A DNA stretch of 64,000 nucleotides, taken from contig NW_027362772.1 of NCBI RefSeq assembly GCF_046119375.1, positions 229,648,001 to 229,712,000 of the forward strand. The letters run 5' to 3'. The translations under genes were made by a program, and so were the position numbers. Shown here piece by piece: positions 21,762 to 62,615 of this stretch. Origin of the DNA: Phyllobates terribilis. Lineage: Eukaryota. How positions within the stretch are numbered: position 1 is the first letter of the stretch; each line of letters starts with the position of its first letter. A model generated the notes under the pieces. That model was not told the origin of the DNA. It did not search any database and was given only the letters and a program-made list of their open reading frames with translations.

Positions 21762-22623
21762 CTAGGGATGCAACTATATATGTATCCAACTGTACTTAAC
21801 AGCTGATCACAGCTGTCCCCCTAATCTCCAACGACCAGCTGTTATTTCTAGGGAAAAACTACTCATTTTTTCTGCAGTGGCCTTTACTGGTGAAGTGCAG
21901 TATTACATGGCACACATTCAAATAAATGGGCCATCATGGAATACATAGAGGAGCTGCTCTATTTATTCATAGAGAGGGTCCCGAGCCCATATGATGTCCA
22001 TATACTATAATAGGGCTTATGTACAGTATAGGGGCTGTGCACTGTTTATACGGTCCATTATACTCCTCTATAAACCATTGCCGCCATTATTTTGAAATTT
22101 CACTGTCTTTTGTCTCCTTCTCCATAATGAATGACTTTTTACAAGTCAGAATTCTTCATGAAAAAAAATCACCAAGTGAGACTGTGGCGACCTTATCCAG
22201 CTAACACTTGTAATGTTTCTCCGGAGACCGATGCAGACAGTCTGCTGATCTACTGTGTTTTCCCTGATATTTAAACCGCCTGCCGCCTAATCTGCAGATA
22301 TTGTGCTGCAATTCACTGCATTCAAAGCTGTGGTTTCACTTCCTGGACAGTGTTCCCTTCCACATTTAATGGCGACCCTATAAAACACAAATCTTGGCAC
22401 TTCTGAATAGAAAGCTTTCAATATTGGGAAGCATCTCCCTTACACTGGCTTCACTTTACAAGAATTGCTCATGATAGCGGGCAAAGACAATAGGGGAGAT
22501 AGCATTCAGCATCAGTCACTTACACCCTGCGTCAGAGATGCCGCTCTGTCGGGTCTTTAGTCTTTCTTCTCTTTGACAGAATCCTACTATAATAGTATTG
22601 AGTACCCGACCCTACTTTGTTTG

Positions 22624-24642
22624 TGTAACATACCTGGCGGCGTCCTTGCATAGTGGTCCATCTCCCACTGTGCAAGAGCGCGCACTTGATCTCCTGTCCA
22701 GGGTGTCTCTCTGGCTTCCCTCCTTGCTGTCTGTTTGTCTGTTTTGGCTGCATAGGGCGACGCCCGCTGAACTTCCTGTTTCTTGTACCTGCTGCGGACA
22801 CGCCCCTGTTGCACCTTCAGCCTATTGCTGTCCATCTTTGGGTATTTATACCACCTTCTTCCTCAAGATGGCGCCTGAGCATAGTGTTGCATTCAGTGTG
22901 TGCTTGCACTCTGAAGGTGCCAGGTCCCGTTCTGTGTTCTCTTGTCTGCCTATCCTGGAGGCTGTATTTCCAGGCCTGTCTGAACACGCTCCTAGCCTGT
23001 TCCTCCCGCCTTCTAGGGGCCGATTACCTAGACCCGCTCCTGTATGTTGTCTGTCCTGTCTGAACACGCTCCTAGCCTGTTCCTCCCGCCTTCTAGGGGC
23101 CGATTACCTAGACCCGCTCCTGTATCTTGTCTGTCCTGTCTGAACACGCTCCTTGCCTGTTCGTCCCGCCTCTCTGGGGGCAGTATTCCCAGACCCGCTC
23201 CTGTATCCCGCTGCAGTGTCGGTCTCCTCCGTACACTCAGTTCCAGTCTGAACTCTCTCCTATCCTTTACCTGTTTTGCCTCTATGTCCATTCCCTTCCT
23301 TTTTCTGCAGAGTCTGAACTCGTACCTAACTCCTGCTTGTTGTCTCTGTACTCCCGTTTGTGAGTTTGTGGTCCACTCGCTACTTCACTGCAAGTACCCT
23401 GTGGGTATCTGGCTCTGCCTTTCTCTTCCTGTCTGTTCCGTGTGAACAGAGCCCTGTCCCCCCTGCTCCGACTCCTTTGCTCACCGCTCCGGCGGTTCTA
23501 GCCTGCTCTGGCTCCTTTGCTCACCGCTCCGGCGGTTCTAGCCTGCTCTGACTCCTTTGCTCACCGCTCCGGCGGTTCTAGCCTGCTCTGACTCCTTTGC
23601 TCACCGCTCCGGCGGTTCTAGCCTGCTCTGACTCCTTTGCTCACCGCTCCGGCGGTTCTAGCCTGCTCTGACTCCTTTGCTCACCGCTCCGGCGGTTCTA
23701 GCCTGCTCTGACTCCTTTGCTCACCGCTCCGGCGGTTCTAGCCTGCTCTGGCTCCTTTTGCTCGCTGCTCCGGCAGCCTTGCTCCGCTCTGACCCTTTTG
23801 CTCACTGCTCCGGCAGCCTTGCTCCGCTCTGACCCTTTTGCTCACTGCTCCGGCAGCCTCGCTCCGCTCTTATCCTTTTTGCTCACTGCTCCGGCAGTCT
23901 TGCTCCACTCTTGCTCATCGCTCCAGGCGGCCTCGTCCTGCTTTACTCTTGCTCACTGCTCCGGCAGTCTCGCTCAGCTCTGACCCTTTGCTCACCGCTC
24001 CTGGCGGCCTTGTCCTGCTCTACTCTTGCTCACCGCTCCAGGCGGCCTCGTCCTGCTCTGCTCTCACTCACCTCTCTGGGCGGCCTCACTCTGCTGTGTT
24101 TGTCCGCCACATCTGTGGTTCTGTTCCTGAGTTGCAATGTGTACTGGGTCCTATCCCGCCAGTGTCCCTACCTGCTAGTGCCTCCCTGTCTGCACTCTAG
24201 CTGTGCTTGCCTGTACCCCTCTGTCTGTATTGTTCCTGAGTCCCAGTGTGTACTGGGTCCTATCCCGCCTGTGTTCCTACCTGCTAGTGCCTCCCTGTCT
24301 GCACTCTAGCTGTGCTTGCCTGTACCCCCCTGCCTGCATACCCGCCTGCCTGCATCCCAGTCGAGCCAGCCTATACCCACCAGTCTGTATGCCAGCCTAC
24401 CAGTCTGTTCCTGTATTCCCCTGTGTGGGTCAACAGCCGTGTCCGGGGTCTGTCCTGGAGTAGCACCTGGTCCCTCTGCTCGGTTCCTCCTTGGTGCACT
24501 GGCGTCGTATGCCGTCGTGCGACCCTGGTCGGATCGGGTGAATACCTAGTTACGCCCCTCCAGGCATTCACTCTCCGGCACGGTCCAGTGGAATCACTAC
24601 AATCACACGCACACGCCGCTCAGCCCGGGCGTGTGCATTACA
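22624..24642 (+). repeat. 5' LTR (2019 bp) with nested 80-bp x3, 40-bp x7 and other tandem repeats
   Basis: Direct repeat of 26825-28803. 80-bp units recur at 22981, 23061 and 23141. 40-bp units span 23471-23750. Confidence 0.95.
22843..22882 (+). promoter_or_regulatory. LTR promoter: TATA box (TATTTATA), YY1-like AAGATGGCG and predicted TSS near 22873
   Basis: Motifs seen directly. The TSS is inferred from TATA+30 and from complementarity to the PBS. Confidence 0.6.
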
Positions 24643-24644
24643 GC

Positions 24645-24654
24645 ATGCTCAGGC
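24645..24654 (+). promoter_or_regulatory. Self-priming-type primer binding site (atgctcaggc)
   Basis: Located 2 nt after the 5' LTR and exactly complementary to gcctgagcat at 22873-22882. There is no TGG (tRNA CCA-complement) start. Confidence 0.65.
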
Positions 24655-24782
24655 CATGGTTCCCGTTGAGCCCCACGGCCTTCGCTCTCTGAGAAGTTTC
24701 CAGCGAATACATGCATTAAAATAAATAAATAATTTTTTTTTTTTTCTCAGCTGAGTTCCAGGCTAATTACGCACCCGTCCAG

Positions 24783-27344
24783 ATGGATCTATCCGCTCTC
24801 GTTCCTGCGGATCCGCCACGTTACTATGGGGATCCAAGACAAAGTCGTGCATTTGTGGAGCAATGCATGCTACACTTCAAGTTCTACCCTCTATGTTTTC
24901 CCACCGATCGGGTTAAGGTGGCATTCATTATGTCTTACCTGGCGGGTGATGCCTTGGAATGGATCAACCCCCTATATGAAACACAGGATCCGATCCTCCT
25001 GGACCTAATGGCCTTCCTGGTGGCCTTTCTAATGGTCTTCGATGATCCTAACCCGGAGGCTCCTGCTGAAGCTTCACCTCCCAATATCCCGGAGCAGCCC
25101 CGATGGGTAATGTGTGTGGGTAGCGCAATAGTCCTCCAGCCCAATGAGACTACTGCCCACCCAGAATCCTCACAGGGTGACTACGCTTTCCGGAATACTT
25201 CTCCCAACCTCAAGAGGCAGTCCAGACGTGCTAGACGTAGAGGCAAGCCGTCACGCCAGGGTCTGTCCTCCCTGAGACCTCCTGACCCCAACCTTGAAGT
25301 CCCTACTGAAGCTTCATCTCCCTGTATCCCGGAGAAGCCCCAACGGGTAATGTGCGTGGGTAGTGCTCCGGTTCTCCTGCCCGAAGAGACTTCTGCCCAT
25401 CCAGACTCCACACAGGAGAACTTCCTGCACCCGGCATCAGATGCTTCACCCACTTTAACCGGTGTGCATGTCCAAGGATGCTCCAAAGCTGTGGTTACCT
25501 CTGAGTCTGTGCACCTCTACTACCTGGCGGAGGACCCCCTGTTGCCTCCTGAATCCTCCGGGATACCACTCGATGACAAATGGAGAGAGACTTCTCTACA
25601 CTCGGTACTCGATACTTTGTCCGCTTCGTCCTGTGAGCCTGACAATGGGTACCCCAAAGTGGTAGTTACCCCCGAGTCTCTACACCCCTCCGACCAGGCG
25701 GAGGACCTCCAGTTGTCTCCAGAACCCTTCGGGGTGCTACCTGGTAGCGAAAGGACAGAGACTCTCCTATGCTCTGTACCTGATACCTCGCTCGCTTCGT
25801 CCAGTGAGTCCAACCTAGTGTACTCCGAAGCAGAGGTTACTCCCGAGTCTCTACACCCCTCCGACCAGGCGGAGGACCTCCAGTTGTCTCCAGAACCCTT
25901 CAGGGTGCTACCTGGTAGCGAAAGGACAGAGACTCTCCTATACTCTGTACCTGATACCTCGCTCGCTTCGTCCAGTGAGTCCAACCTAGTGTACTCCGAA
26001 GCAGAGGTTACTCCCGAGTCTCTACACCCCTCCGACCAGGCGGAGGACCTCCAGTTGTCTCCAGAACCCTTCGGGGTGCCACCTGGTGGTGAATGGACAG
26101 AGACTTTCCTATATCCTGGATCTGATACCTCGCTTGCTTCGTCCAGTGAGTCCGACCTTGTGTACTCTGAAGCAGAGGTTACCCTTGAGTCTCTACACCC
26201 CTCTGACCAGGCGGAGGACCTCCAGTTGTCTCCAGAACCCTTCGGGGTGCCACCTGGTGGTGAATGGACAGAGACTTTCCTATACTCGGTACCCGATACC
26301 TCGCCTGCTTCCTCCAGTGAGTCCGACCTAGTGTACTCTGAAGCAGATGTTTTCTCTGAGCCTCTGCACTCTTCTGACCCGGCGGAGGACCTCCAGTTGT
26401 TTCCTGAATTCTCCGGGGTACCACCAGATAACAAAGAGACAGTGACTTTTCCTCATTATGTACCTGATAACCCGTCTATTTCTTCCTGTGAGCTTGACAA
26501 GATGTACCTCGAAGCAGAGATTACCCCCAAGTCTCTGTCCCCCTCCAACCCGGTGAAGGACTTCCAGTTGTCTCCTGTACCCTCTGGGGTGCCACCTGAA
26601 AATATGTGGAGAAAGACTAACTTGTGTGCTGTTCCTGGTACTCCACCCGTTTCATCTGTTGCTAAGGATGGCTGGATAGGAGGTAGCATCCTAGCTAACC
26701 AGATGAGATCAATTTTTCCTGTGGACAGTGGAAGTGATCTCCTTGAAGTGAACGACTGGTCCTCGAATTCCCTGCGGAAGATTCTGGCAGGCCTGAAGAA
26801 GAGGGGGCGTAAGGGGGGGGGTACTGTAACATACCTGGCGGCGTCCTTGCATAGTGGTCCATCTCCCACTGTGCAAGAGCGCGCACTTGATCTCCTGTCC
26901 AGGGTGTCTCTCTGGCTTCCCTCCTTGCTGTCTGTTTGTCTGTTTTGGCTGCATAGGGCGATGCCCGCTGAACTTCCTGTTTCTTGTACCTGCTGCGGAC
27001 ACGCCCCTGTTGCACCTTCAGCCTATTGCTGTCCATCTTTGGGTATTTATACCACCTTCTTCCTCAAGATGGCGCCTGAGCATAGTGTTGCATTCAGTGT
27101 GTGCTTGCACTCTGAAGGTGCCAGGTCCCGTTCTGTGTTCTCTTGTCTGCCTATCCTGGAGGCTGTATTTCCAGGCCTGTCTGAACACGCTCCTAGCCTG
27201 TTCCTCCCGCCTTCTAGGGGCCGATTACCTAGACCCGCTCCTGTATCTTGTCTGTCCTGTCTGAACACGCTCCTAGCCTGTTCCTCCCGCCTTCTAGGGG
27301 CCGATTACCTAGACCCGCTCCTGTATCTTGTCTGTCCTGTCTGA
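24783..27344 (+). CDS. 853-aa ORF: Gag capsid N-terminal domain (DUF4939/LDOC1/RTL8-like) plus Ser/Pro/Glu-rich 57-aa repeats, reading into the 3' LTR
   Basis: PPRYYGDPRQSRAFVEQCMLHF...FPTDRVKVAFIMSYLAGDALEWINPLYE...FLMVFDDP matches the sushi-type Gag pattern. Uninterrupted frame. Translation is unproven. Confidence 0.7.
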   Translation: MDLSALVPADPPRYYGDPRQSRAFVEQCMLHFKFYPLCFPTDRVKVAFIMSYLAGDALEWINPLYETQDPILLDLMAFLVAFLMVFDDPNPEAPAEASPPNIPEQPRWVMCVGSAIVLQPNETTAHPESSQGDYAFRNTSPNLKRQSRRARRRGKPSRQGLSSLRPPDPNLEVPTEASSPCIPEKPQRVMCVGSAPVLLPEETSAHPDSTQENFLHPASDASPTLTGVHVQGCSKAVVTSESVHLYYLAEDPLLPPESSGIPLDDKWRETSLHSVLDTLSASSCEPDNGYPKVVVTPESLHPSDQAEDLQLSPEPFGVLPGSERTETLLCSVPDTSLASSSESNLVYSEAEVTPESLHPSDQAEDLQLSPEPFRVLPGSERTETLLYSVPDTSLASSSESNLVYSEAEVTPESLHPSDQAEDLQLSPEPFGVPPGGEWTETFLYPGSDTSLASSSESDLVYSEAEVTLESLHPSDQAEDLQLSPEPFGVPPGGEWTETFLYSVPDTSPASSSESDLVYSEADVFSEPLHSSDPAEDLQLFPEFSGVPPDNKETVTFPHYVPDNPSISSCELDKMYLEAEITPKSLSPSNPVKDFQLSPVPSGVPPENMWRKTNLCAVPGTPPVSSVAKDGWIGGSILANQMRSIFPVDSGSDLLEVNDWSSNSLRKILAGLKKRGRKGGGTVTYLAASLHSGPSPTVQERALDLLSRVSLWLPSLLSVCLFWLHRAMPAELPVSCTCCGHAPVAPSAYCCPSLGIYTTFFLKMAPEHSVAFSVCLHSEGARSRSVFSCLPILEAVFPGLSEHAPSLFLPPSRGRLPRPAPVSCLSCLNTLLACSSRLLGADYLDPLLYLVCPV
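25494..26660 (+). repeat. 171-bp (57-codon) in-frame tandem repeat, about 7 units
   Basis: Unit starts at 25494, 25665, 25836, 26007, 26178, 26349 and 26520. The central four are near identical and the outer three are diverged. Confidence 0.9.
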
Positions 27345-28803
27345 ACACGCTCCTTGCCTGTTCGTCCCGCCTCTCTGGGGGCAGTATTCCCAGACCCGCT
27401 CCTGTATCCCGCTGCAGTGTCGGTCTCCTCCGTACACTCAGTTCCAGTCTGAACTCTCTCCTATCCTTTACCTGTTTTGCCTCTATGTCCATTCCCTTCC
27501 TTTTTCTGCAGAGTCTGAACTCGTACCTAACTCCTGCTTGTTGTCTCTGTACTCCCGTTTGTGAGTTTGTGGTCCACTCGCTACTTCACTGCAAGTACCC
27601 TGTGGGTATCTGGCTCTGCCTTTCTCTTCCTGTCTGTTCCGTGTGAACAGAGCCCTGTCCCCCCTGCTCCGACTCCTTTGCTCACCGCTCCGGCGGTTCT
27701 AGCCTGCTCTGGCTCCTTTGCTCACCGCTCCGGCGGTTCTAGCCTGCTCTGACTCCTTTGCTCACCGCTCCGGCGGTTCTAGCCTGCTCTGACTCCTTTG
27801 CTCACCGCTCCGGCGGTTCTAGCCTGCTCTGACTCCTTTGCTCACCGCTCCGGCGGTTCTAGCCTGCTCTGACTCCTTTGCTCACCGCTCCGGCGGTTCT
27901 AGCCTGCTCTGGCTCCTTTTGCTCGCTGCTCCGGCAGCCTTGCTCCGCTCTGACCCTTTTGCTCACTGCTCCGGCAGCCTTGCTCCGCTCTGACCCTTTT
28001 GCTCACTGCTCCGGCAGCCTCGCTCCGCTCTTATCCTTTTTGCTCACTGCTCCGGCAGTCTTGCTCCACTCTTGCTCATCGCTCCAGGCGGCCTCGTCCT
28101 GCTTTACTCTTGCTCACTGCTCCGGCAGTCTCGCTCAGCTCTGACCCTTTGCTCACCGCTCCTGGCGGCCTTGTCCTGCTCTACTCTTGCTCACCGCTCC
28201 AGGCGGCCTCGTCCTGCTCTGCTCTCACTCACCTCTCTGGGCGGCCTCACTCTGCTGTGTTTGTCCGCCACATCTGTGGTTCTGTTCCTGAGTCGCAATG
28301 TGTACTGGGTCCTATCCCGCCAGTGTCCCTACCTGCTAGTGCCTCCCTGTCTGCACTCTAGCTGTGCTTGCCTGTACCCCTCTGTCTGTATTGTTCCTGA
28401 GTCCCAGTGTGTACTGGGTCCTATCCCGCCTGTGTTCCTACCTGCTAGTGCCTCCCTGTCTGCACTCTAGCTGTGCTTGCCTGTACCCCCCTGCCTGCAT
28501 ACCCGCCTGCCTGCATCCCAGTCGAGCCAGCCTATACCCACCAGTCTGTATGCCAGCCTACCAGTCTGTTCCTGTATTCCCCTGTGTGGGTCAACAGCCG
28601 TGTCCGGGGTCTGTCCTGGAGTAGCACCTGGTCCCTCTGCTCGGTTCCTCCTTGGTGCACTGGCGTCGTATGCCGTCGTGCGACCCTGGTCGGATCGGGT
28701 GAATACCTAGTTACGCCCCTCCAGGCATTCACTCTCCGGCACGGTCCAGTGGAATCACTACAATCACACGCACACGCCGCTCAGCCCGGGCGTGTGCATT
28801 ACA
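26825..28803 (+). repeat. 3' LTR (1979 bp), with six 40-bp units
   Basis: Identical to the 5' LTR except for one fewer 40-bp unit and three substitutions seen by eye. Confidence 0.95.
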
Positions 28804-28836
28804 GTTTGTATATAAACTTGTATATATATATATACA

Positions 28837-31724
28837 CAGTGCCTTGTGAAAGTATTTGGCCTCCTTGAACTTTTCTACCTTTTGCCACATTTCTGGCTTC
28901 AAACAGAAAGATATAAAATTCTAATTTTTGGGGGAAGAATCAACAACAAGTGAGACACAATCCTGAAGTGGAACGAAATTTATTGGATATTTTAAACTTT
29001 TTTAAAAAATTAAAAACTGAAAAGTGGGGCGTGCAATATTATTCGGCCCCTTTACTTTCAGTGAGGATCTCTGAATGACCCAATGTTGTCCTAAATGACT
29101 GGTAATAAGTAGAATCCACCTGTGTGTAATCAAGTCTCCGTATAAATGCATCTGCTCTGTGATAGTCTTAGGGTTCCGTTTCAAGTGCAGAGAGCATCAT
29201 GAAGACCAAGGAACACACCAGGCAGGTCCGAGATACTGTTGTGGCGAAGTTTAAAGCTGGATTTGGATACAAAAAGATTTCCCAAGTTTTAAACATCTCA
29301 AGGAGCACTGTGCAAGCGATTATATTGAGATGGAAGGAGTAGCAGACCACTGCAAATCTACCAAGACCCGGCCGTCCCTCTAAACTTTCATCTCGAACAA
29401 GGAGAAGACTGATCAGAGATGTGACGTGCCCCCAGGGCCGGGGGGGGGGGTTACTCGGCAGCTGGGCCTCTGGTTTCTTGGGGGATATCACGGTAGCTGG
29501 CCCGGTCCGTGACCCAGGGCGGTCAGTGCAAAAGGGGATATTTTTATATGGGGTTTTTGGAATTGTTCGTGACGCCACCTGTGGATTGCGGCTAAAGGGA
29601 GCCGCCGCTGCGGAGCAGTCCTCTGGAGCTGGTGTTACGGCAGCAGGGATGGTGTGGCTCTCCACAGGTAGAGCTTGCTCCAGGGCAGTGTAGGTAGTGT
29701 TAGTTGCGCTGGGCGTTGTAGTGCAAGTGCAGGGGGAAAGATGGCGCAGACGAAATAATGGACAGAGGCGGTGCGGTGCAGTCATCCGAGTCTTTACTCC
29801 CAGTTCTTTAGTTCCTCAGGGTGCACTGTCAGCTTACAGCCTCCCGCGTCACGCTGCGTTCACCAGGCAGGGGTTCAGCTCTTCCTCAGGCAGATTAGGA
29901 GTACCTGGCAGAACCCCACTTTCTCGTGTTCCTAGCTAGACCGACTTCACGCTGGGTCTTTCTCCTTCCTGCCCTGTGCTGCCCACTCTCAATCCTGCTC
30001 AGGTGCTCTGAAGTCCCTCCTGTACGTCTGAGTTCACAGACCTGCTTGACCCTCACGGGGATTAGAATGCGGCTTACGATCCCTCTGTCTTCTGACAGAT
30101 TCGGGGCATACGGGTGCCGTCCTGCACTCGCCGTACCCCCTAGGATCACTTCCACAGAACGGAGCCTACTCCCTGCTCCCCTCCTGGGCCTCTAACACTA
30201 GGCCCTAGTTGTGGAGCAGAGCTCCTACTGAGACTCTGCTCCCGGACTGTTCTTCTGAACTGTCCTGAGCTGTTCTTCTGAACTGCTCTCCTACTGATCT
30301 AATCTGTTCCCTTCCGACTTGGGCCTCACTGGCTAGGCCCGCCTCTGGAGCAGAGCTCCTGTTGAGCCTCTGCTTCTCTCACTTTCCTCCTCTGACTGAA
30401 CGCACTCTCTAAGATGGCTTCCCTATATATACTCCTACCAAAGTGCTCCCCCTAACTACTTCCTCCACCCACACCCACTACTGGTTCCCCCTACCTCTGG
30501 GTTCCCCCCACTCCAGCCAGTGTCAGGGCTCAGCAGAAACATACATTGCGTCTTGCCCTTCCAGCCGGCCTGGAGCAGTGTAGTGTTGGATGCAGGTGTT
30601 GGAGTTCCGCGCAGCACTCCCTCCTTACCTGAGAGAAGGATACACCACACCTCCGGGTGAGGTTCAGTACCTCTGTGGCGACTAAACCATCAGGGGCGCC
30701 ACACTTGCAGCCAAAAGGCCCATGATCACTCTGGATGAACTGCAGAGATCTACAGCTGAGGCGGGAGAGTCTGTCCATAGGACAACAATCAGTCGTACAC
30801 TGCACAAATCTGGCCTTTATGGAAGAGTGGCAAGAAGAAAGTCATTTCTCAAAGATATCCATAAAAAGTCTCGTTTGAAGTTTGCCACAAGCCACCTGGG
30901 AGACACACCAAACATGTGGAATAAGGTGCTCTGGTCAGATGAAACCAAAATCGAACTTTTTAGCCACAATGCAAAACGATATGTTTGGCTTAAAAGCAAC
31001 ACAGCTCATCACCCTCAAAACACCATCCCCACTGTCAAATATGGTGGTGGCAGCATCATGGTTTGAGCCTGCTTTTCTTCAGCAGGGACAGGGAAGATGG
31101 TTAAAATTGATGGGATGATGGACGGAGCCAAATACAGGACCATTCTGGAAGAAAACCTGTTGGAGTCTGCAAAAGACCTGAGACTGGGTCGGAGATTTAT
31201 CTTCCAACAAGACAATGATCCCAAACATAAAGCAAAATCTACAATGTAATGGTTCAAAAATAAACGTATCCAGGTGTTAGAATGGCCAAGTCAAAGTTCA
31301 GACCTGAATCCAATCGAGAATCTGTGGAAAGAGCTGAAAACTGCTGATCACAAACACCCTTCATCCTACCTCACTGAGCTCGAGCTGTTTTGCAAGGAAG
31401 AATGGGCAAGAATTTCAGCCTCTCGATGTGCAAAACTGATAGAGACATACGCCAAGCGACTTGCAGCTGTAATCGCAGCAAAAGGTGGCTCTACAAAGTA
31501 TTAACTCAAGGGGGCCGAATAATATTGCACGCCCCACTTTCCAGTTTTTAATTTTTTTAAAAAGTTTAAAATATCCAATAAATTTCGTTCCACTTCACGA
31601 TTGTGTCCCACTTGTTGTTGATTCTTCCCCAAAAAATTAGAATTTTATATCTTTATGTTTGAAGCCAGAAATGTGGCAAAAGGTAGAAAAGTTCAAGGGG
31701 GCCAAATACTTTAACAAGGCACTG
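28837..31724 (+). mobile_element. Tc1-family transposon, defective (ATG 29199, MKTKEHTRQVRDTV), interrupted by a solo LTR
   Basis: TIR cagtgccttgtgaaagtatttggc and reverse complement. Right TA TSD intact, left reads CA. Transposase resumes at 30708 and ends at 31504. Confidence 0.93.
29422..30703 (-). mobile_element. Solo LTR, family X copy 2, inside the Tc1 transposase gene
   Basis: Same termini as copy 1. The Tc1 sequence agagatg|cagcc is rejoined after removing the LTR plus 4 bp (TSD gatg/cttg, degenerate). Confidence 0.8.
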
Positions 31725-33130
31725 TATATACAGTATATATGCACCGGAGCTTGCTTACTCACATATTATGTCATACAGAAACACATTACATCACACAGAT
31801 AGGCTTTCCTTTGAACAATACTGGGGCGTACATATTTGTCATCTTGTGCAAGGTATTGCAATATTCTTTTCAGTCGCTTATCCTTATCTAAGGGGTTCAT
31901 TATTTCATAGTGTGTGCCTGATCCCTGTACAGCGCCACACAGAGTCCCTATTATCGACCTACAGGCACTCCTTGTGTCACCACATGCTGCCTCTGTGAGG
32001 TGCCATATGTTCTCCTAGAAGTGACGATCCTAAGGAAGAAATACACAGAGACTTAAAGGGAATCTGTCAACACGACCTTTACTCCCCCAAACTGTTTATA
32101 TGGTCATGATGCTCTGTGAAAGACAATGTCATCCATACCTTTATTTATACAATGTGTTGCTGCCTGACTGAAAAAATAGCAGTTTTAATTCATATGCAAA
32201 TTAGGTTTAAGTGCTTTGGGTGTAATCAGAGCACTTCCCAAGCATCTGCCTTCTTGAATCTACGTATTCTCTGCCTACATCTTCTTCTGCTTGACTGACA
32301 TCTCACTTGCTTGACTACCTAGTCAATGAGCTGTGAGTTATGCAGAAGAAAAAAGAGCTAGGGAGACAAAATCTGTAAGAGGGGCCACCACCTACTATGT
32401 GACATTTAAAATGCTGCTGTTTTCTTATGAGGCATAGGGGACCTCAAACACCAGGGCCTAGATACACCTGCTTCTTCTGCACCTTCTATAGCTTCTCGTC
32501 CTTGGTAATATAGCATGCAACATATAATATCAGAGGAATGCATTGGTACATCATGGAAACATGATCCCAAATAGAGTACCAAAAGTGACGAGCATTAATA
32601 GGAGCTATTACCGTGCCCATGGCTGTACCTATCCAACATTGTACAGTGGACTGTATAGGACATCTTTTCCTCAGCCCACACTTCCTTCCCATCCCTCCAA
32701 ATTCTATATTCTCCCCAAATGAACTTTTGGCTTTTGTACCGACAAGAAAAAACAGATATCATCCCATCCTCATAAAATGTGCCATTAATGCATGTGTTCT
32801 CTATAAAGCCTTCTTTAAAGGAGGTGATGACCCGGCTCTACTTGGCAACAAGTGGACTTTAGCTTATAAACCTGATCAGGCATGTAGGACGCTGCGGATA
32901 TTTTCACATCATTTACTTCATTATCATAAATCATGTTTATATACAGTATATTGTAATTTAAGGGAAAGATTATTAAAAATGATTGATGTGCCCCATTTAT
33001 GACCCTTTCTGCATGGAAACGGTTCCTTGCTGCAGATCTCTCAATTTATCCTTTTAGTTTGGAAGTGATTATCTTCAGTTATACCTTCTTAGTGGGAACG
33101 GGTGACACTTTATCACAATGAGGATGGTAC

Positions 33131-46712: not shown

Positions 46713-49499
46713 CTAAATCATCTCAGACAGATGTCTGTCCAGCCTCTGTTTGAAGACGTCCATTGAAGGGGAACTCACCACCTCTCGTGGCAGCCTGTTC
46801 CACTCATTAATCACCCTAACTGTCAAAAAGTTTTTTCTAATATCTAATCTGTGTCTCCTCCCATTTAGTTTCATCCCATTGCTTCTAGTCTTTCCTTGTG
46901 CAAATGAGAATAAAGATGATCCTTCTACAATGTGACAGCCCTTGACATATTTGTAGACAGCTATTAAGTCTCCTCTCAGTCTTCTTTTTTGCAAGCTAAA
47001 CATTCCCAAATCCTGCAACCGTTCCTCATAGGACATGGTTTGCAGACCAGTCACCATTCTGGTCGCTCTTCTCTGAACTTGCTCCAGTTTGTCGATGTCT
47101 TTTTTAAAATGTGGTGCCCAAAACTGTACACAGTATTCCAGATGAGGTCTGACCAAAGAGGAGTAAAGACCGATAATGACTTCACGTGATCTAGACTGTA
47201 TGCTTCTGTTAATACATCCCAGAATTGTATTTGCCTTTTTTGCTGCTGCATCACACTGTTGACTCATGTTCAGTCTATGATCTATTAGTATACCTAAGTC
47301 TTTTTCACATGTACTGTTGCTTAGCTCTATTCCTCCCATTCTGAATATGCTTTTTTCATTTTTATTGCCCAGATGTAGTACTTTGCATTTTTCCCTGTTA
47401 AAAACCATTCTGTTGGTTGCTGCCCACTGCTCCAGTTTATTTAGGTCTTTTTGAATCCCCTCTCTCTCTTCTCTAGTATTAGCTATCCCTCCTAGCATTG
47501 TGTCATCAGCAAATTTAATCAGTTTACCCTCAATTCCTTCATCTAAATCATTGATAAAGATGTTGAACAATACAGGTCCCAGGACAGAGCCCTGTGGTAC
47601 CCCACTTGAGACATTCATCCAGCTGGATGTGAAGCCATTTACAACCACCCTTTGAGTCCGATCACTAAGCCAGTTATGAATCCACCTAACAGTTGCCTGG
47701 TCCATTGCATACTTGGTCATTTTTTCAATAAGGATGGTGTGAGATACTTTGTCAAATGCTTTGCTGAAGTCAAGATATACTATATCTACAGCATTTCCCT
47801 GATCCACCCAGTCAGTGATTCTGTCATAGAAGGAAATTAAGTTAGTCTGACATGACTTGTTAGTTACAAACCCATGCTGACTCTGGTTAATCACTTCATT
47901 CTTATCCATGTACTTACATACATGTTGTTTAATAATTTGTTCAAAGATCTTTCCTGGTATAGAAGTCAGACTCACCGGCCTATAGTTCCCTGGGTCCACC
48001 TTCTTCCCCTTTTTGAAGATAGGAACATTTGCTCTTCTCCAGTCTTCTGGGACTTCTCCTGTTCTCCAAGAATTTTCAAAGATTATGGAGAGTGGTTCTA
48101 AAATTTCTTCTACGATCTCCTTCAGTACTCTGGGGTGTAATTCATCTGGACCTGGAGACTTGAACTCATTTATGTTAGCTAAATATTCCCTCACAATCTT
48201 TCTGTTTACAGATAACTTGGATTCCTCTATTCCTTTAAAAGGACAGTGAAGATCAGTTGATCTTACATTTTCTTTCTGAGAGAAAACAGATGCAAAATAG
48301 GAGTTAAAAAGTTCGGCCTTCTCAACATCCTCTCTTACCATTTCTCCATTTTCATCCTGTAAAAATCCTATAGCATCTTTGACTTTACTTTTACTTTTGA
48401 CATACCCCCAAAATCCTTTTTTATTGCTTTTGACATCTCTTGCAAGCCTTAATTCATTGTCAGCTTTAGCTAACCTGATACGTGCCCTGCAGGATCTGCA
48501 GACTGCATTATAATCTTCTTTAGATATGCCTCCCTCTTTCCATTTAATAAACATTTCTTTCTTTCTTTTTAGCATGTGTTTAAGTTCTGTGTTCATCCAT
48601 CCTGGTTTCCTTAAATGCTTCCCATTCTTCCTACTTTTCGGGATTGTTAACGATTGTGCTTTGAGAATCTAATTTTTAAAAATTTCCCATCCTTCCTGGA
48701 CATTTTTGTCCTTAAGGACATCCAGCCATTGGATCCCTCCTATTCTCTTTCTGAGTCTCTTAAAATCTGCCTTTCTAAAATCTAACCTTGAAGTTTGAGT
48801 CTTCACATGTCTTCCTCCTCTAGTTATCCAAAATTCTATAATAGCATGATCGCTGCCTCCTAGGGTCCCAGCCACCTTTACCTCCTCAACCATTTCCTCC
48901 CTGTTTATAAGGATTAGATCCAAAGTAGCAGATCCCCTTGTTTTCTCCCCTACCTTTTGGAAGATAAAGTTGTCAGCAAGAGAGGATAAGAATTTGCTTG
49001 ACCTGTTAGTTTTACTTGAGAGAGATTCCCAACAAATGTCTGGATAGTTGAAATCTCCCATGACCACTACGTCATATTTTTTGGAGAACTTGGTCATTTG
49101 ATACATAAAGAGTTCATCCATATCTTCAGCTTGCCCAGGTGGCCTGTAGTAAATGCCTACAATGGTGTCCTTTCCGTTGTTCTCTCCTTGTATTCTTACC
49201 CAAACAGTTTCCACAGAACTCCCAGTCTCTGAAGCTTCAATCTCTGTGCAGATATACGCTTTTCTAACATACAATGCGACACCTCCTCCTCGTTTATCAA
49301 GTCTGTTTCTTGCAAATAAGTTGTATCCTTTTAGCCTTTTATTCCAATCATGTGTATCGTCCCACCAAGTTTCAGTGATTCCAATGACATCATATTTCTT
49401 TTCCTGCATTAGTAGTTCCAATTCTCCTTGTTTGTTGCCCATGCTTTGTGCATTTGTATAAAAACATTTTAGTTTGTGATTGGTTTCTCTTCCTCCCAT
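46713..49499 (-). pseudogene. CR1 ORF2 (APE endonuclease plus reverse transcriptase), one in-frame TAG at 48671-48669
   Basis: NAQS, ITETW, YRPP, GDFN and SDH endonuclease motifs. GVPQGSVLGP and FADD RT motifs. The two ORF-track pieces are in the same frame. Confidence 0.93.
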
Positions 49500-49621
49500 A
49501 TTTTTATTATTTAAATTGTTTTGTCTTTGTTCTTCCCTTCCACTTCCAGTAGCAGAGATCTCAATAGTATTTGTCAGCTGTATGGCTTTTTCTGGCCTTT
49601 TGCTTCCCTTCCCACATTGTT

Positions 49622-50584
49622 CTAGTTTAAAGCTCTCCTGATGAGTGTAGCAAGGCGACTTCCAAATACATGTTTTCCAGTCTTCGTAAGGTGCACCCCA
49701 TCTCTAGCAAGTAGTCCATCGTATAGGTAATTCATTCCGTGATCCAGAAATCCAAATCCTTGTTGACGGCACCATCGACGTAGCCAGTTGTTCACCTGTA
49801 GAATCTTATTCCACCTCATTGTTCCATGGCCATCCACTGGGAGGATGGATGAGAAGACCACCTGCGCTCCCAATTCTTTCACTTTCTTGCCTAAGTCTTC
49901 AAAGTCACTGCTGATGGTTTCCAGGTCCTTTCTTGCGGTGTCATTTGTCCCCACATGTATTAGCAGGAATGGGTAGTGATCTGTAGGTCTGAAGAGTCTT
50001 GATATCCTGTCAGACACATCTTTAATTTTTGCTCCTGGAAGACAGCACATTTCTCTTGAGGTTATGTCTGGTCTGCAGATAGTGGCCTCTGTTCCTCTTA
50101 GCAGGGAATCCCCCATGACCACCACTCTCCGTTTTTTCTTCACAACATTCTTCTTTTTCCATCCAGGAGGATTCTGAGGGCTTACAAGGTTATTCATTGC
50201 TGGCAAAGTCTTATTTTGCTGTATTTCTTCATGGTTCTCCTGCGTGAGAGCCTGGTACTGGTTCCTGAGCAGTATGGGTGCTGACTGCCTCTCGATCCTC
50301 CTGCTTCTGTGGGTCACATGCTTCCATTCCTCTGTTTCATCAGGTGCAGTTCGAATTTCTTCTCTTTCTGAATCATGAAGAGATAATTCTGCTCTGTCTA
50401 AGAACTCTTCACCTTCCTTAATGATTTTCAAGGTAGTTAACCTCTCTTCTAGATTTCGCAACTTTTCCTCCAACAGGGACACAAGCTTGCATTTCTGGCA
50501 TGTGAAGTTTGGCTTTTCCACTGGCAAGTCTGTGAACATGTAGCAGGATATGCAGCTCACCAAATGGCTCCTGGACTCTTCCAT
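49622..50584 (-). CDS. CR1 ORF1p: zinc-finger-like CxxC...CxxC, coiled coil and SGNH esterase domain, intact 320 aa
   Basis: SCISC...CQKC, heptad leucines, and GDS, GTND and DGVH SGNH blocks, the established CR1 ORF1p architecture. Confidence 0.92.
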   Translation of the reverse strand: MEESRSHLVSCISCYMFTDLPVEKPNFTCQKCKLVSLLEEKLRNLEERLTTLKIIKEGEEFLDRAELSLHDSEREEIRTAPDETEEWKHVTHRSRRIERQSAPILLRNQYQALTQENHEEIQQNKTLPAMNNLVSPQNPPGWKKKNVVKKKRRVVVMGDSLLRGTEATICRPDITSREMCCLPGAKIKDVSDRISRLFRPTDHYPFLLIHVGTNDTARKDLETISSDFEDLGKKVKELGAQVVFSSILPVDGHGTMRWNKILQVNNWLRRWCRQQGFGFLDHGMNYLYDGLLARDGVHLTKTGKHVFGSRLATLIRRALN

Positions 50585-50650
50585 GTTCTTACTGTTAATG
50601 TTCTGAAAACAGTGAAAAAAGCTTTAAAATGCGCACGCCGGTAGGCGCGG

Positions 50651-57796: not shown

Positions 57797-60700
57797 TTAT
57801 TATTTCATAAATCAATAATACACATGAAAATAAAAAAAACTTTGTAATATATCTTATTAGAGAAAACTGCTTCTTTCTCCTCCTGGACCAATCATTCATT
57901 GTCAATTCATGGGTAAAATATGTATTCAGTGATGACAGATTTTCTCTTTACTGAGATAGGAGATGGCAGTGATTTTAAAATACTATAGAGGAGGGGCTAG
58001 AGGCAGACACAGACATTCAAGGGACGAGCTAGAGGCAGACACAGACATTCTAGGGAGGAGCTAGAGGCAGACACAGACATTCAAGGGACGAGCTAGAGGC
58101 AGACACAGACATTCAAGGGACGAGCTAGAGGCAGACACAGACATTCTAGGGAGAAGCTAGAGGCATACACAGACATTCTAGGGAGAAGCTAGAGACAGAT
58201 ACAGACATTATAGGGAAGACCTAAAGGCAGACACAGACATTCTAGGGAGGAGCTAGAGGCAGACACAGACATTCTAGGGAGGAGCTAGAGGCAGACACAG
58301 ACATTCTAGGGAGGAGCTAGAGACAGACACAGACATTCTAGGGAGGAGCTAGAGGCAGACACAGACATTCTAGGGAGGAGCTAGAGGCATACACAGACAT
58401 TCTAGGGAGGAGCTAGAGGCAGATACAGACATTATAGGGAAGACCTAAAGGCAGACACAGACATTCTAGGGAGGAGCTAGAGGCAGATACAGACATTATA
58501 GGGAAGACCTAAAGGCAGACACAGACATTCTAGGGAGGAGCTAGAGGCAGATACAGACATTCAAGGGAGGAGCTAGAGGCAGATACAGACATTCTAGGGA
58601 GGAGCTAGAGGCCGACACAGACATTGTAGGGAGGAGCTAGAGGCAGACACAGACATTGTAGGGAGGAGCTAGAGGCAGACACAGACATTCTAGGGAGGAG
58701 CTAGAGGCAGACACAGACAATAGGGAGGATCTAGAGCCAGACACTGACATTGTAGGGAGGATCTAGAGACAGACACAGACATTCTAGGGAGGAGCTAGAG
58801 GCAGACGCAGACATTCTAGGGAGGAGTTAGAGACAGACACAGACATTCTAGGGAGGAGCTAGAGACAGACACATACATTCTAGGGAGGAGTTAGAGACAG
58901 ACACAGACATTCTAGGGAGGAGCTAGAGGCAGACACAGACATTCTAGGGAGGAGCTAGAGGCAGACACAGACATTCTAGGGAGGAGCTAGAGACAGACAC
59001 AGACATTCTAGGGAGGAGCTAGAGGCAGACACAGACATTCTAGGGAGGAGCTAGAGGCATACACAGACATTCTAGGGAGGAGCTAGAGGCAGATACAGAC
59101 ATTATAGGAAGACCTAAAGGCAGACACAGACATTCTAGGAAGGAGCTAGAGGCAGATACAGACATTATAGGGAAGACCTAAAGGCAGACACAGACATTCT
59201 AGGGAGGAGCTAGAGGCAGATACAGACATTCAAGGGAGGAGCTAGAGGCAGATACAGACATTCTAGGGAGGAGCTAGAGGCCGACACAGACATTGTAGGG
59301 AGGAGCTAGAGGCAGACACAGACATTGTAGGGAGGAGCTAGAGGCAGACACAGACATTCTAGGGAGGAGCTAGAGGCAGACACAGACAATAGGGAGGATC
59401 TAGAGCCAGACACTGACATTGTAGGGAGGATCTAGAGACAGACACAGACATTCTAGGGAGGAGCTAGAGGCAGACGCAGACATTCTAGGGAGGAGTTAGA
59501 GACAGACACAGACATTCTAGGGAGGAGCTAGAGACAGACACATACATTCTAGGGAGGAGCTAGAGGCAGACACAGACATTCTAGGGAGGAGCTAGAGGTA
59601 GACACAGACATTCTAGGGAGGAGCTAGAGGCAGACACAGACATTCTAGGGAGGAGCTAGAGGTAGACACAGACATTCTAGGGAGGAGCTAGAGGCAGACA
59701 CAGATTCTAGGGAGGAGCTAGAGGCAGACATAGACATTCTAGGGAGGAGCTAGAGACAGAAACTGACATTCTAGGGAGGATCTAGAGGCAGACACTGACA
59801 TTGTAGGGAGGATCTAGAGACAGACACAGACATTCTAGGGAGGAGCTAGAGGCTGATAGAGACATTCTAGGGGGGAGCTAGAGGCAGACACAGACATTCT
59901 AGGGAGGAGCTAGAGACAGACACAGACATTCTAGGGAGGAGCTAGAGACAGACACATACATTCTAGGGAGGAGCTAGAGGCAGACACAGACATTCTAGGG
60001 AGGAGCTAGAGGTAGACACAGACATTCTAGGGAGGAGCTAGAGGCAGACACAGACATTCTAGGGAGGAGCTAGAGGTAGACACAGACATTCTAGGGAGGA
60101 GCTAGAGGCAGACACAGAGATTCTAGGGAGGAGCTAGAGACAGAAACTGACATTCTAGGGAGGAGCTAGAGACAGACACAGACATTCTAGGGAGGAGCTA
60201 GAGGCAGAGACAGACATTGTAGGGAGGATCTAGAGACAGACACAGACATTCTAGGGAGGAGCTAGAGGCTGATAGAGACATTCTAGGGGGGAGCTGGAGG
60301 CAGACACTGACATTCTAGGGAGGAGCTAGAGACAGACACAGACATTCTAGGGAGGAGCTAGAGGCAGACACTGACATTCTAGGGAGGAGCTAAAGGCAGA
60401 CACAGACATTCTAGGGAGGAGCTAGAGGCAGACACAGACAATAGGGAGGATCTATAGGCAGACACTGACATTGTAGGGAGGATCTAGAGGCAGACACAGA
60501 CATTCTAGGGAGGAGCTACAGGCAGACACAGACATTGTAGGGAGGAGCTAGAGGCAGACACAGACATTCTAGGGAGGAGCTAGAGGCAGACACAGACATT
60601 CTAGGGAGGAGCTAGAGGCAGACACTGGCATTCTAGGGAGGAGCTAGAGACAGACATTCTAGGGAGGAGCTAGAGGCACACACTGACATTCTAGGGAGGA

Positions 60701-62615
60701 GCTAAAGGTAGACACAGACATTCTAGGGAGGAGCTAGAGACAGACACAGACTTTCTAGGGAGGAGCTGGGGCAGACACAGACAATAGGGAGGAGCTAGAG
60801 ACGGACACAGACATTCTAGGGAGGAGCTAGGGGCAGACACAGACATTCTAGGGAGGAGCTAGAGGCAGACACAGACATTCTAGGGAGGAGCTAGAGGCAG
60901 ACAGACATTCTAGGGAGGAGCTAGAGGCAGTCACAGACATTCAAGGGAGGAGCTAGAGGCAGACACAGACATTCTAGGGAGGAGCTAGAGTCAGATACAG
61001 ACATTGTAGAGAGGAGCTAGAGGCAGACACAGACATTCTATGGAGGAGCTAGAGGCAGACACAAACAATAGGGAGGATCTTGAGCCAGACACTGACATTG
61101 TAGGGAGGATCTAGAGACAGACACAGACCTTCTAGGGAGAAGCTATAGGCAGACACAGACATTCTAGGGAGGATCTAGAGACAGACACAGACATTCTAGG
61201 GAGGAGCTAGAGACAGACACAGACATTCTAGGGAGGATCTAGAGACAGACACAGACATTCTAGGGAGGAGCTAGAGGCAGCCACAGACATTGTAGGGAGG
61301 AGCTAAAGGCAGACACAGACATTGTAGGGAGGAGCTAGAGGCAGACACAGACAATAGGGAGGATCTAGAGGCAGACACTGACATTGTAGGGAGGATCTAG
61401 AGATAGACACAGACATTCTAGGGAGGAGCTAGAGGCAGACATAGACTTTCTAGGGGGGATCTAGAGGCAGACACAGACATTCTAGGGAGGAGCTAGAGGC
61501 AGACGCAGACATTCTAGGGAGGAGCTAGAGGCAGACGCAGACATTCTAGGGAGGAGCTAGAGGCAGACGCAGACATTCTAGCGAGGAGCTAGATGCAGAC
61601 ACAGACATTCTAGGGAGGAGCTAGAGACAGACACTGACATTCTAGTGAGGAGCTAGAGATAGACACAGACATTCTAGGGAGGAGCTAGAGGCAGACACTG
61701 ACATTGTAGGGAGGATCTAGAGACAGACACAGACATTGTAGGGAGGAGCTACAGGCAGACACTGACATTCTAGGGAGGAGATAAAGGCAGACACAGACAT
61801 TCTAGGGAGGAGCTAGAGGCAGACACAGACAATAGGGAGGATCTATAGGCAGACACTGACATTGTAGGGAGGATCTAGAGACATGCACAGACTTTCTAGG
61901 GAGGAGCTAGAGGCTGACACAGACATTCTAGGGAGGAGCTATAGGCAGACACAGACATTCTAGGGAGGAGCTAGAGGCAGATACAGACATTCTAGGGAGG
62001 AGCTAGAGGCAGGCACAGACATTCTAGGGAGGAGTTAGAGACAGACACTGACATTCTAGGGAGGAGCTAGAGACAGACACAGACATTGTAGGGAGGAGCT
62101 AGAGGCAGATACTGACATTGTAGGGAGGAGCTATAGACAGACACAGACATTCTAGGGAGGAGCTAGAGGCAGACACTGACATTCTAGGGAGGAGCTGGGG
62201 CAGACACAGACATTCTAGGGAGGAGCTAGAGGCATACACAGACAATAGGGAGGAGCTAGAGATGGACACAGTCATTCTAGGGAGGAGCTAGGGGCAGACA
62301 CAGACATTCTAGGGAGGAGCTAGAGGCAGACACAAACATTCTATAGAGAAGCTAGAGACAGACACAGACATTCAGCTGCAAGGTCTCCTGAAAGGACACT
62401 TACAGTTCTCCGTAGAACTTTATGAGCACCAACTGTCATTCCCTATCTCAGTAATGGGAAAGTCTGTATTCACTGAAGACAGATTTTACCTGTGATTTGA
62501 GAATTTTGAGAAGAAAAGATTAGTCCAGGAGGAGAGACAAGTGTATTTCTCAAATAAGATATATTACAAAGTTTCTTATTTTCAAGTGTAATATCGATTT
62601 ATGAAAAAAAATGGA
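57797..62615. mobile_element. TIR element (probably a TTAA MITE) containing the 32-bp satellite
   Basis: About 170-bp inverted arms at 57800-57970 and 62430-62610. TTAA on both sides (57793 and 62616). Confidence 0.65.
57988..62373. repeat. 32-bp satellite (gcagacacagacattctagggaggagctagag), about 137 units
   Basis: Continuous 4.4-kb tandem array. Confidence 0.98.

Follow-up and report, generated by a model that had tools for sequence, protein, structure and literature searches.

A high-copy, pol-less Gypsy satellite of Phyllobates terribilis keeps open a reading frame that encodes half a capsid

Our preferred reading, which falls just short of an even call, is that the Gypsy-type element at positions 22624-28803 (forward strand) of the window, i.e. 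the whole stretch of 64,000 nt of P. terribilis DNA analysed here, belongs to a high-copy satellite family that lacks pol, keeps its ORF open and is likely copied by a helper, and in which a predicted docking of the encoded capsid N-lobe on helper capsids favours packaging of its own RNA. The initial annotation of this DNA had pictured a satellite element that is still mobile, maintains its N-lobe ORF and has an autonomous partner, and copy number, complete copies, selection and the helper family all bear this picture out. The element shows the structure of a non-autonomous LTR retrotransposon, with LTRs, a 5-bp TSD, a priming site and a PPT; its features, in window coordinates, are:

22619..22623, + strand: 5' TSD, GTTTG; the 3' copy is at 28804-28808
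22624..24642, + strand: 5' LTR, 2,019 nt, TGTAAC...TTACA, with 80-, 40/38- and 109-nt tandem arrays inside
22843..22850, + strand: TATA-like box, 29-30 nt upstream of the self-priming site
22873..22882, + strand: predicted RNA 5' end and self-priming site, complementary to 24645-24654
24458..24560, + strand: U5 segment of the LTR, about 100 nt, predicted hairpin, common to some helper subfamilies
24645..24654, + strand: putative self-priming PBS, with no tRNA primer inferred
24656..24724, + strand: upstream ORF of 22 codons, a remnant of the gag start, from its identity to the helper
24715..24750, + strand: AT-rich tract with stops in three frames, a polypyrimidine run and AG; predicted splice acceptor or reinitiation spacer
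24783..27344, + strand: main ORF, 853 codons, no internal stop
24783..25049, + strand: capsid N-lobe (DUF4939), aa 1-89, from Pfam, Gag alignment, structure model and purifying selection
25050..25480, + strand: Pro/Ser linker with an Arg-rich patch (aa 144-158, 25212-25256)
25481..26598, + strand: acidic Ser/Pro/Glu repeat of 171 nt (57 aa), 6.5 copies
26782..26824, + strand: what is left of the pol chromodomain end; the PPT (purine run 26811-26821) overlaps it
26825..28803, + strand: 3' LTR, 1,979 nt, into which the ORF of this copy reads as far as 27344

The TSD, near-identical 2-kb LTRs, PPT and single uninterrupted 853-codon ORF of the initial annotation were all recovered: GTTTG lies on both sides, the LTRs are set apart by 3 mismatches and by a single 40-nt repeat unit, and the purine tract and the stop-free frame stand where listed above. 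Two of its details needed correction, since the ORF was said to end at KKRGRKGGGTV, a motif that occupies aa 672-682 and is followed by some 170 further codons within the 3' LTR, and the repeats were given as about 550 aa, when the 171-nt units cover about 370 aa. Its guess that KKRGRKGGGTV is a C-terminal remnant of pol stood, because the helper pol ends alike and satellite and helper are 83–85% identical over the 47 nt that precede the 3' LTR; judged from this likeness, the ORF ends in a chromodomain remnant of an ancestral pol. The last ca. 170 codons are unconserved LTR read-through. A functional LTR-encoded C-terminus was considered and is ruled out by the variation of this end, which lies from −6 to +153 codons relative to the start of the LTR in the 59 open sampled copies. 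Features that had gone unnoticed in the initial annotation are the putative self-priming instead of a tRNA PBS and the upstream ORF with its acceptor-like tract, as well as how many copies there are and that a helper family exists.

The first ca. 90 aa had been interpreted as a sushi-type capsid NTD, with the CTD, zinc knuckle, PR, RT, RH and IN absent, and both halves of this interpretation were confirmed. In Pfam, aa 11-85 match DUF4939 (E 2.6e-7; 31 bits, the cut-off being 29) and no other gag or pol domain is detected in the ORF, Retrotrans_gag matching the helper Gag and not the ORF, and in alignments the homology to full Gags stops at the NTD-CTD linker. The predicted structure of the N-lobe is a confident helical bundle (pLDDT 88.6), with best matches to the dArc1 capsid (Z 8.9, rmsd 3.3, 79 aligned) and a similar match to the Ty3 capsid NTD (Z 8.1, rmsd 3.3, 73 aligned), VIA Z-scores that are middling for a helical bundle and that do not separate an N-lobe from a C-lobe. 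Foldseek with this model gave no match at E 0.001 or better, the PDB sequence search retrieved only Ty3 Gag (E 0.76), and searches for protein homologs of the whole ORF and for longer N-lobe relatives yielded no matches. A representative protein search retrieved 1,129 matches, the 150 listed aligning via the N-lobe; among these 150, 14 have no C-lobe match and a tail of at least 60 aa, and the acidic repeat tail occurs in none of them. The Arg-rich patch likely derives from the gag spacer, as its sequence suggests, and is matched in 92 of 99 loci, a count of matches that does not measure selection.

The element does not stand alone; a single-copy structure would have spoken against the initial annotation. 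Exact genome matches numbered 8,783 for a 20-mer across the LTR end and PBS and 8,983 for a 19-mer across the PPT and LTR (controls, 0 in both cases), counts that redundant contigs of the 10.57-Gb assembly may inflate; by simple arithmetic (8,783 copies of ca. 5.8 kb), the family totals about 50 Mb of the 10.6-Gb assembly. We sampled the first 80 of 100 PBS matches listed, all from one contig, and 77 of them were complete, pol-less copies with an internal part of 1.09–2.87 kb; in the other three, the 3' LTR was not mapped and unrelated frames lie downstream. Thirteen additional PPT loci, most of them with no listed PBS match nearby, were all satellites. No RT, RH or IN was found in the family, as judged from Pfam on this copy and from the short internal part in 77/80. 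The median LTR divergence is 0.26% and the LTRs are identical in 8 of 72 copies, so that the family consists of many dispersed young insertions, as is characteristic of a non-autonomous LTR retrotransposon. The ORF is not a fixed, low-copy host locus, and nothing indicates a domesticated copy or a benefit for the host.

Satellite LTRs (loci L067-L146) vary considerably: two promoter types precede the same self-priming site, length ranges from about 1.2 to 3.0 kb through swapped repeat arrays, and the two halves of the N-lobe appear to be mosaic between subfamilies. Together, these patterns suggest template switching. We also found one tandem LTR-internal-LTR-internal-LTR array among the 80 sampled copies (L108/L109, G000:C1, about 29.11–29.12 Mb) and, among 150 matches listed, eight clusters resembling tandem arrays, at about 4–5 kb spacing. 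Another copy, L110, is broken by a reverse-oriented, pol-bearing Gypsy of a different family. The ORF is also identical over 201 nt to contigs of run X8 (organism C), which are labelled as a different organism, so related species may have the family in common.

Selection on the ORF is evident from its state across copies. It is open from the ATG to the PPT in 59 of the 77 complete copies, and the open fraction falls with increasing LTR age (25/28, 21/26 and 8/18 copies), which indicates that copies are born intact and decay afterwards. All of the first premature stops (17/17) are private to a single copy, one more copy having lost the ATG, and in non-repeat regions stops account for 10 of 292 single-copy variants vs. 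0 of 425 shared variants (p 1.1e-4). The length of the ORF is a multiple of three in 70/77 copies, a retention that is partly automatic because the repeat unit is of 171 nt, and LTR and leader lengths are spread evenly across frames. Other copies are not riddled with stops and frameshifts, which was one of the outcomes foreseen as adverse in the initial annotation. Coupled to it there was a dN/dS near 1, and here the answer is divided. For the N-lobe, omega is 0.55 in shared and 1.44 in private variants (p 0.010; p 0.045 excluding CpG), and pairwise dN/dS is 0.37–0.50 among 89 stop-free copies, compared to ca. 0.11 for the helper N-lobe (19 copies; dN 0.045, dS 0.426); for the linker and the tail, shared-variant omega is indeed close to 1 (1.12 and 1.03, respectively). 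Amino-acid constraint is confined to the N-lobe: the open frame and the N-lobe matter, and the sequence of the tail does not. The same test in the older satellite lineage described below, on 26 of 30 loci kept after duplicate removal and picked by protein likeness, had few shared variants and was uninformative.

The near-neutral linker and tail, from which stops are nevertheless purged, would also fit an explanation in which the act of translation counts and not the protein: a frame open as far as the 3' LTR would spare the RNA from nonsense-mediated decay or route it to assembly, and the N-lobe would be a slowly decaying relic. Such indifference to the encoded sequence would agree with a repeat number that varies from 1 to 12 among sampled copies, with the variable C-terminus, with an in-frame deletion of the tail in several sampled copies and with repeat-unit variants that have no codon-position bias (102/88/100). 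We nevertheless consider it unlikely, if worth keeping in view, because the synonymous excess is seen in the N-lobe alone, because N-lobe core residues are kept despite synonymous saturation with respect to the helper, and because younger lineages lack a decayed knuckle/protease stretch and still keep the N-lobe.

A complete chromodomain Gypsy family of the same genome, with 19,429 PBS matches, is the likely helper of the satellite, as deduced from shared sequence, and supplies a candidate for the autonomous partner, sharing LTR ends and PBS region, that the initial annotation had anticipated. It was exposed by 2 of the 7 matches of one genome search, and genome searches with a changed PBS or pol end retrieved satellite variants only and no helper. 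Its pol domain set is complete (PR, RT, RH, IN and chromodomain). Among 20 copies taken by position, 17 have a gag of 309–316 aa and 13 a frame of more than 1,000 aa, and the ten LTR pairs mapped are 3–22 substitutions apart, none being identical. Satellite and helper have in common the PPT, the LTR ends, the gag start, a Tf1-type self-priming layout and the age range, and the first ca. 50 nt after the 5' LTR are 73–75% identical. Their N-lobes show 53–55% amino acid identity and 57% DNA identity, with saturated synonymous sites, which rules out an origin of the satellite as a recent and simple deletion of the helper. A tree of 79 columns unites the 12 satellite rows in a single clade (100/100) with a long branch, placed beside the helper family at 80/75, a position that is unsettled.

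An older satellite lineage, with at least 150 copies and an LTR divergence of 2–5% in the three measured, has a PBS that is intermediate between those of the satellite and helper families. One pattern search for this lineage gave no matches. Its ORF includes, in frame, a decayed zinc-knuckle/protease stretch with no catalytic motif, ca. 30% matching to the helper protease and RT start (E 1e-14), which is gone from the younger lineages. It follows that the satellite ORF is an old gag-pol stripped stepwise, and in frame, of its C-lobe and enzymes. The U5 segment is found in 80/80 satellites and 23/30 older-lineage loci; in helpers, it is in 56 of 80 loci selected by protein (L212 and L220 among the carriers) vs. 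1 of 20 sampled by position. Its hairpin is predicted, with some one- and two-sided changes among copies; the U5 region alone folds no better than shuffled sequences (z −0.71). Rfam gave no match. This segment may be a packaging or end signal.

Priming of the satellite looks Tf1-like, judging from sequence and from a predicted RNA start site. In Tf1, the 5' end of the RNA is complementary to the PBS over 10–11 nt (available text of PMC7175516), and here a 10-nt match lies about 30 nt past a TATA-like box. The TATA-like hexamer is found 29–30 nt before the self-priming site in 78/78 copies with a mapped site, and, of the 79 copies whose 5' LTR was mapped, 71 have the exact 10-nt site; besides, site and PBS covary across satellite and helper variants. 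The ORF of 27 of the 59 open copies terminates at the TATA-like box, no more than 40 nt upstream of the self-priming site. The LTRs contain no canonical poly(A) signal, the only ones being in the AT-rich leader tract.

The leader contains in 80/80 copies an upstream ORF of 19–34 codons, which begins at the old gag ATG and stops before the main ATG, and a tract with stops in all three frames. This layout would fit either reinitiation on genomic RNA or splicing. If spliced, the ORF could encode an accessory factor made from a sub-genomic mRNA and acting in trans, e.g. on capsid trafficking, silencing or, via its acidic tail and basic patch, transcription, with selection working since few copies would be active per cell. 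A pyrimidine run with an AG in context is matched in 77/80 copies and also, with different flanks, in the older lineage; the upstream ATG that precedes the main ORF is in a strong context; a second acceptor-like site occurs in the LTR of 62/78; and expression of a single copy has been proposed as a route to apparent cis-preference (PMC13558583, in its accessible part). We regard this explanation as rather improbable, because only 45/78 copies have the best-scoring LTR donor, there are contigs that bridge the acceptor unspliced, and some 9,000 copies sharing one product should tolerate broken lineages, of which none was seen. No GT-AG joint was detected in contigs from four runs guessed to be RNA and two of unknown kind, the AT-rich tract being skipped in one of the comparisons, and one raw RNA run gave 0 matching reads.

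A benefit in cis would agree with the purging of stops. Stronger purifying selection is expected on cis-acting genes of transposable elements (PMC13558583, as far as its available sections go), and the absence of stops from shared lineages implies that the ORF benefits its own carrier copy or, again following that source, that few copies are expressed per cell. With no C-lobe, the ORF product is unable to close a capsid lattice, following the discussion of RTL8 in PMC11684626, and docking is the simplest account. In this reading, which we prefer, satellite RNA would be transcribed from the LTR and self-primed, and the RT and integrase of the helper would copy and insert it, as the shared sequence suggests. 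The main ORF would be translated after the short upstream ORF; the N-lobe, the first part of the nascent chain to fold, would then bind helper N-lobes, as RTL8 does with PEG10, and the 500–700 codons of sequence-free tail would tether it to its own mRNA as a co-translational cis link, with the Arg-rich patch possibly contributing RNA binding. The ORF product may thus be a boarding pass, an N-lobe on a long tether that joins the helper capsid while still attached to its mRNA; this would make the satellite an LTR counterpart of the satellite viruses that hijack capsids, and a mobile, selfish origin for half-capsids of the RTL8/LDOC1 type, an idea that we put forward tentatively.

Co-assembly with helper Gag, already proposed in the initial annotation, is plausible, with weak support. 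A complex prediction of the N-lobe with four helper capsid domains scored 0.40 against 0.00 for the best of three controls, with at least 66% of contacts shared between runs and a partner pLDDT of at least 73; in the calibration, 5 of 78 solved complexes and each of the four passing mismatches attained the mark at a score of 0.60 or less, the job is unlike the calibration set, and the pass may stem from a resemblance to solved capsids. RTL8 binds the N-lobe of PEG10 and enters particles (PMC11684626, available text). Several points argue against docking: the constraint on the N-lobe is modest beside that of the helper N-lobe, and marginal when CpG is excluded; the N-lobe sits on a long branch, with its 53–55% identity to helper Gag; a mammalian N-lobe-only protein lowers particle yield, according to the accessible part of the same source; and the helper is linked by shared sequence, with the U5 segment absent from 19/20 position-sampled helpers and 0/10 LTR pairs identical. 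Furthermore, if the translated RNA were spliced from an LTR donor, it would lose the PBS and would not be the packaged genome, breaking the cis link.

The effect on particle yield raises the opposite role, also contemplated in the initial annotation, of a dominant-negative restriction factor similar to RTL8 or Ty1 p22 that would poison helper capsids and limit transposition. The half-capsid architecture is that of RTL8, described as an antagonist of PEG10 particles in the available portion of PMC11684626; lattice closure could be prevented by the bulky acidic tail that replaces the C-lobe, and the weak complex score applies equally here. The option fits poorly and we hold it to be very improbable, since the element needs helper particles for its own movement, the helper is abundant and has young LTRs, and selection acts on mobile lineages instead of on a fixed host locus.

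Compared with known systems, the satellite is a new form of coding non-autonomous LTR element, pol-less elements with gag being already known from plants and half-capsid proteins from fixed mammalian genes. Available text on the TR-GAG or semi-autonomous Gypsy elements of wheat (RLG_Sabrina_SA and RLG_WHAM, with helper RLG_Wilma; PMC9744471, PMC13570524) describes them as likewise high-copy, with a gag-derived ORF, no RT or integrase, and short motifs in common with a long-diverged partner. However, their Gag or Gag-protease would be able to build particles, whereas the satellite has no complete Gag but an N-lobe with an acidic repeat tail, no C-lobe or knuckle, and putative self-priming. The mammalian RTL8/LDOC1 (PMC11684626, PMC10516033, both in part) are also sushi-type capsids reduced to an N-lobe, RTL8 binding the N-lobe of a full capsid, but they are fixed host genes; the satellite is a mobile family of ca. 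9,000 copies with LTRs, a long tail and selection at the level of the element. The parallel with RTL8/LDOC1 drawn in the initial annotation therefore stands for the N-lobe-only architecture and fails for host benefit or a fixed, low-copy, immobile locus, neither of which is indicated. Tf1/sushi chromodomain Gypsy elements, to judge from the accessible part of PMC7175516, resemble the helper in its full domain set with a chromodomain and share an RNA 5' end complementary to the PBS, but the satellite has no pol and its self-priming is deduced from sequence. The p22/p18 of Ty1 (PMC4599808, PMC8458377, available text) is, too, a retrotransposon-encoded partial capsid that interacts with full Gag; in contrast to an N-lobe encoded by a separate element, however, p22 is a C-terminal half whose source is the autonomous element, and its effect is to lower copy number. 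A working analogy is offered by Alu, whose RNA reaches the L1 machinery at the ribosome (PMC13558583, partial text), although Alu is non-coding and uses host SRP9/14, and the adaptor of the satellite would be parasite-encoded. The literature searched, with Repbase, Dfam, most subscription journals and supplements outside its scope, holds no description of a mobile N-lobe-only family.

Gag-coding non-autonomous elements are assumed to supply capsid, and this family cannot build one; since the N-lobe and an open frame are nevertheless maintained by selection across thousands of copies, half a capsid evidently serves a selfish element in some way. Half-capsid genes may, as these data suggest, arise prior to domestication. 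Stages of the decay from gag-pol to half-capsid survive together in one genome. As particle RNA of the animal would allow a comparison of intact with broken copies, the family is a natural system for studying cis-preference in LTR elements.

Elsewhere in the window, the satellite adjoins a Tc1-like DNA transposon with 223-nt inverted ends (28831-31730), into which another insertion breaks from about 29420. What is presumably a CR1-type LINE is represented on the minus strand at 46716-50623 by long frames of 651, 344 and 333 codons, and a 32-nt tandem array of ca. 138 copies spans 57990-62373.
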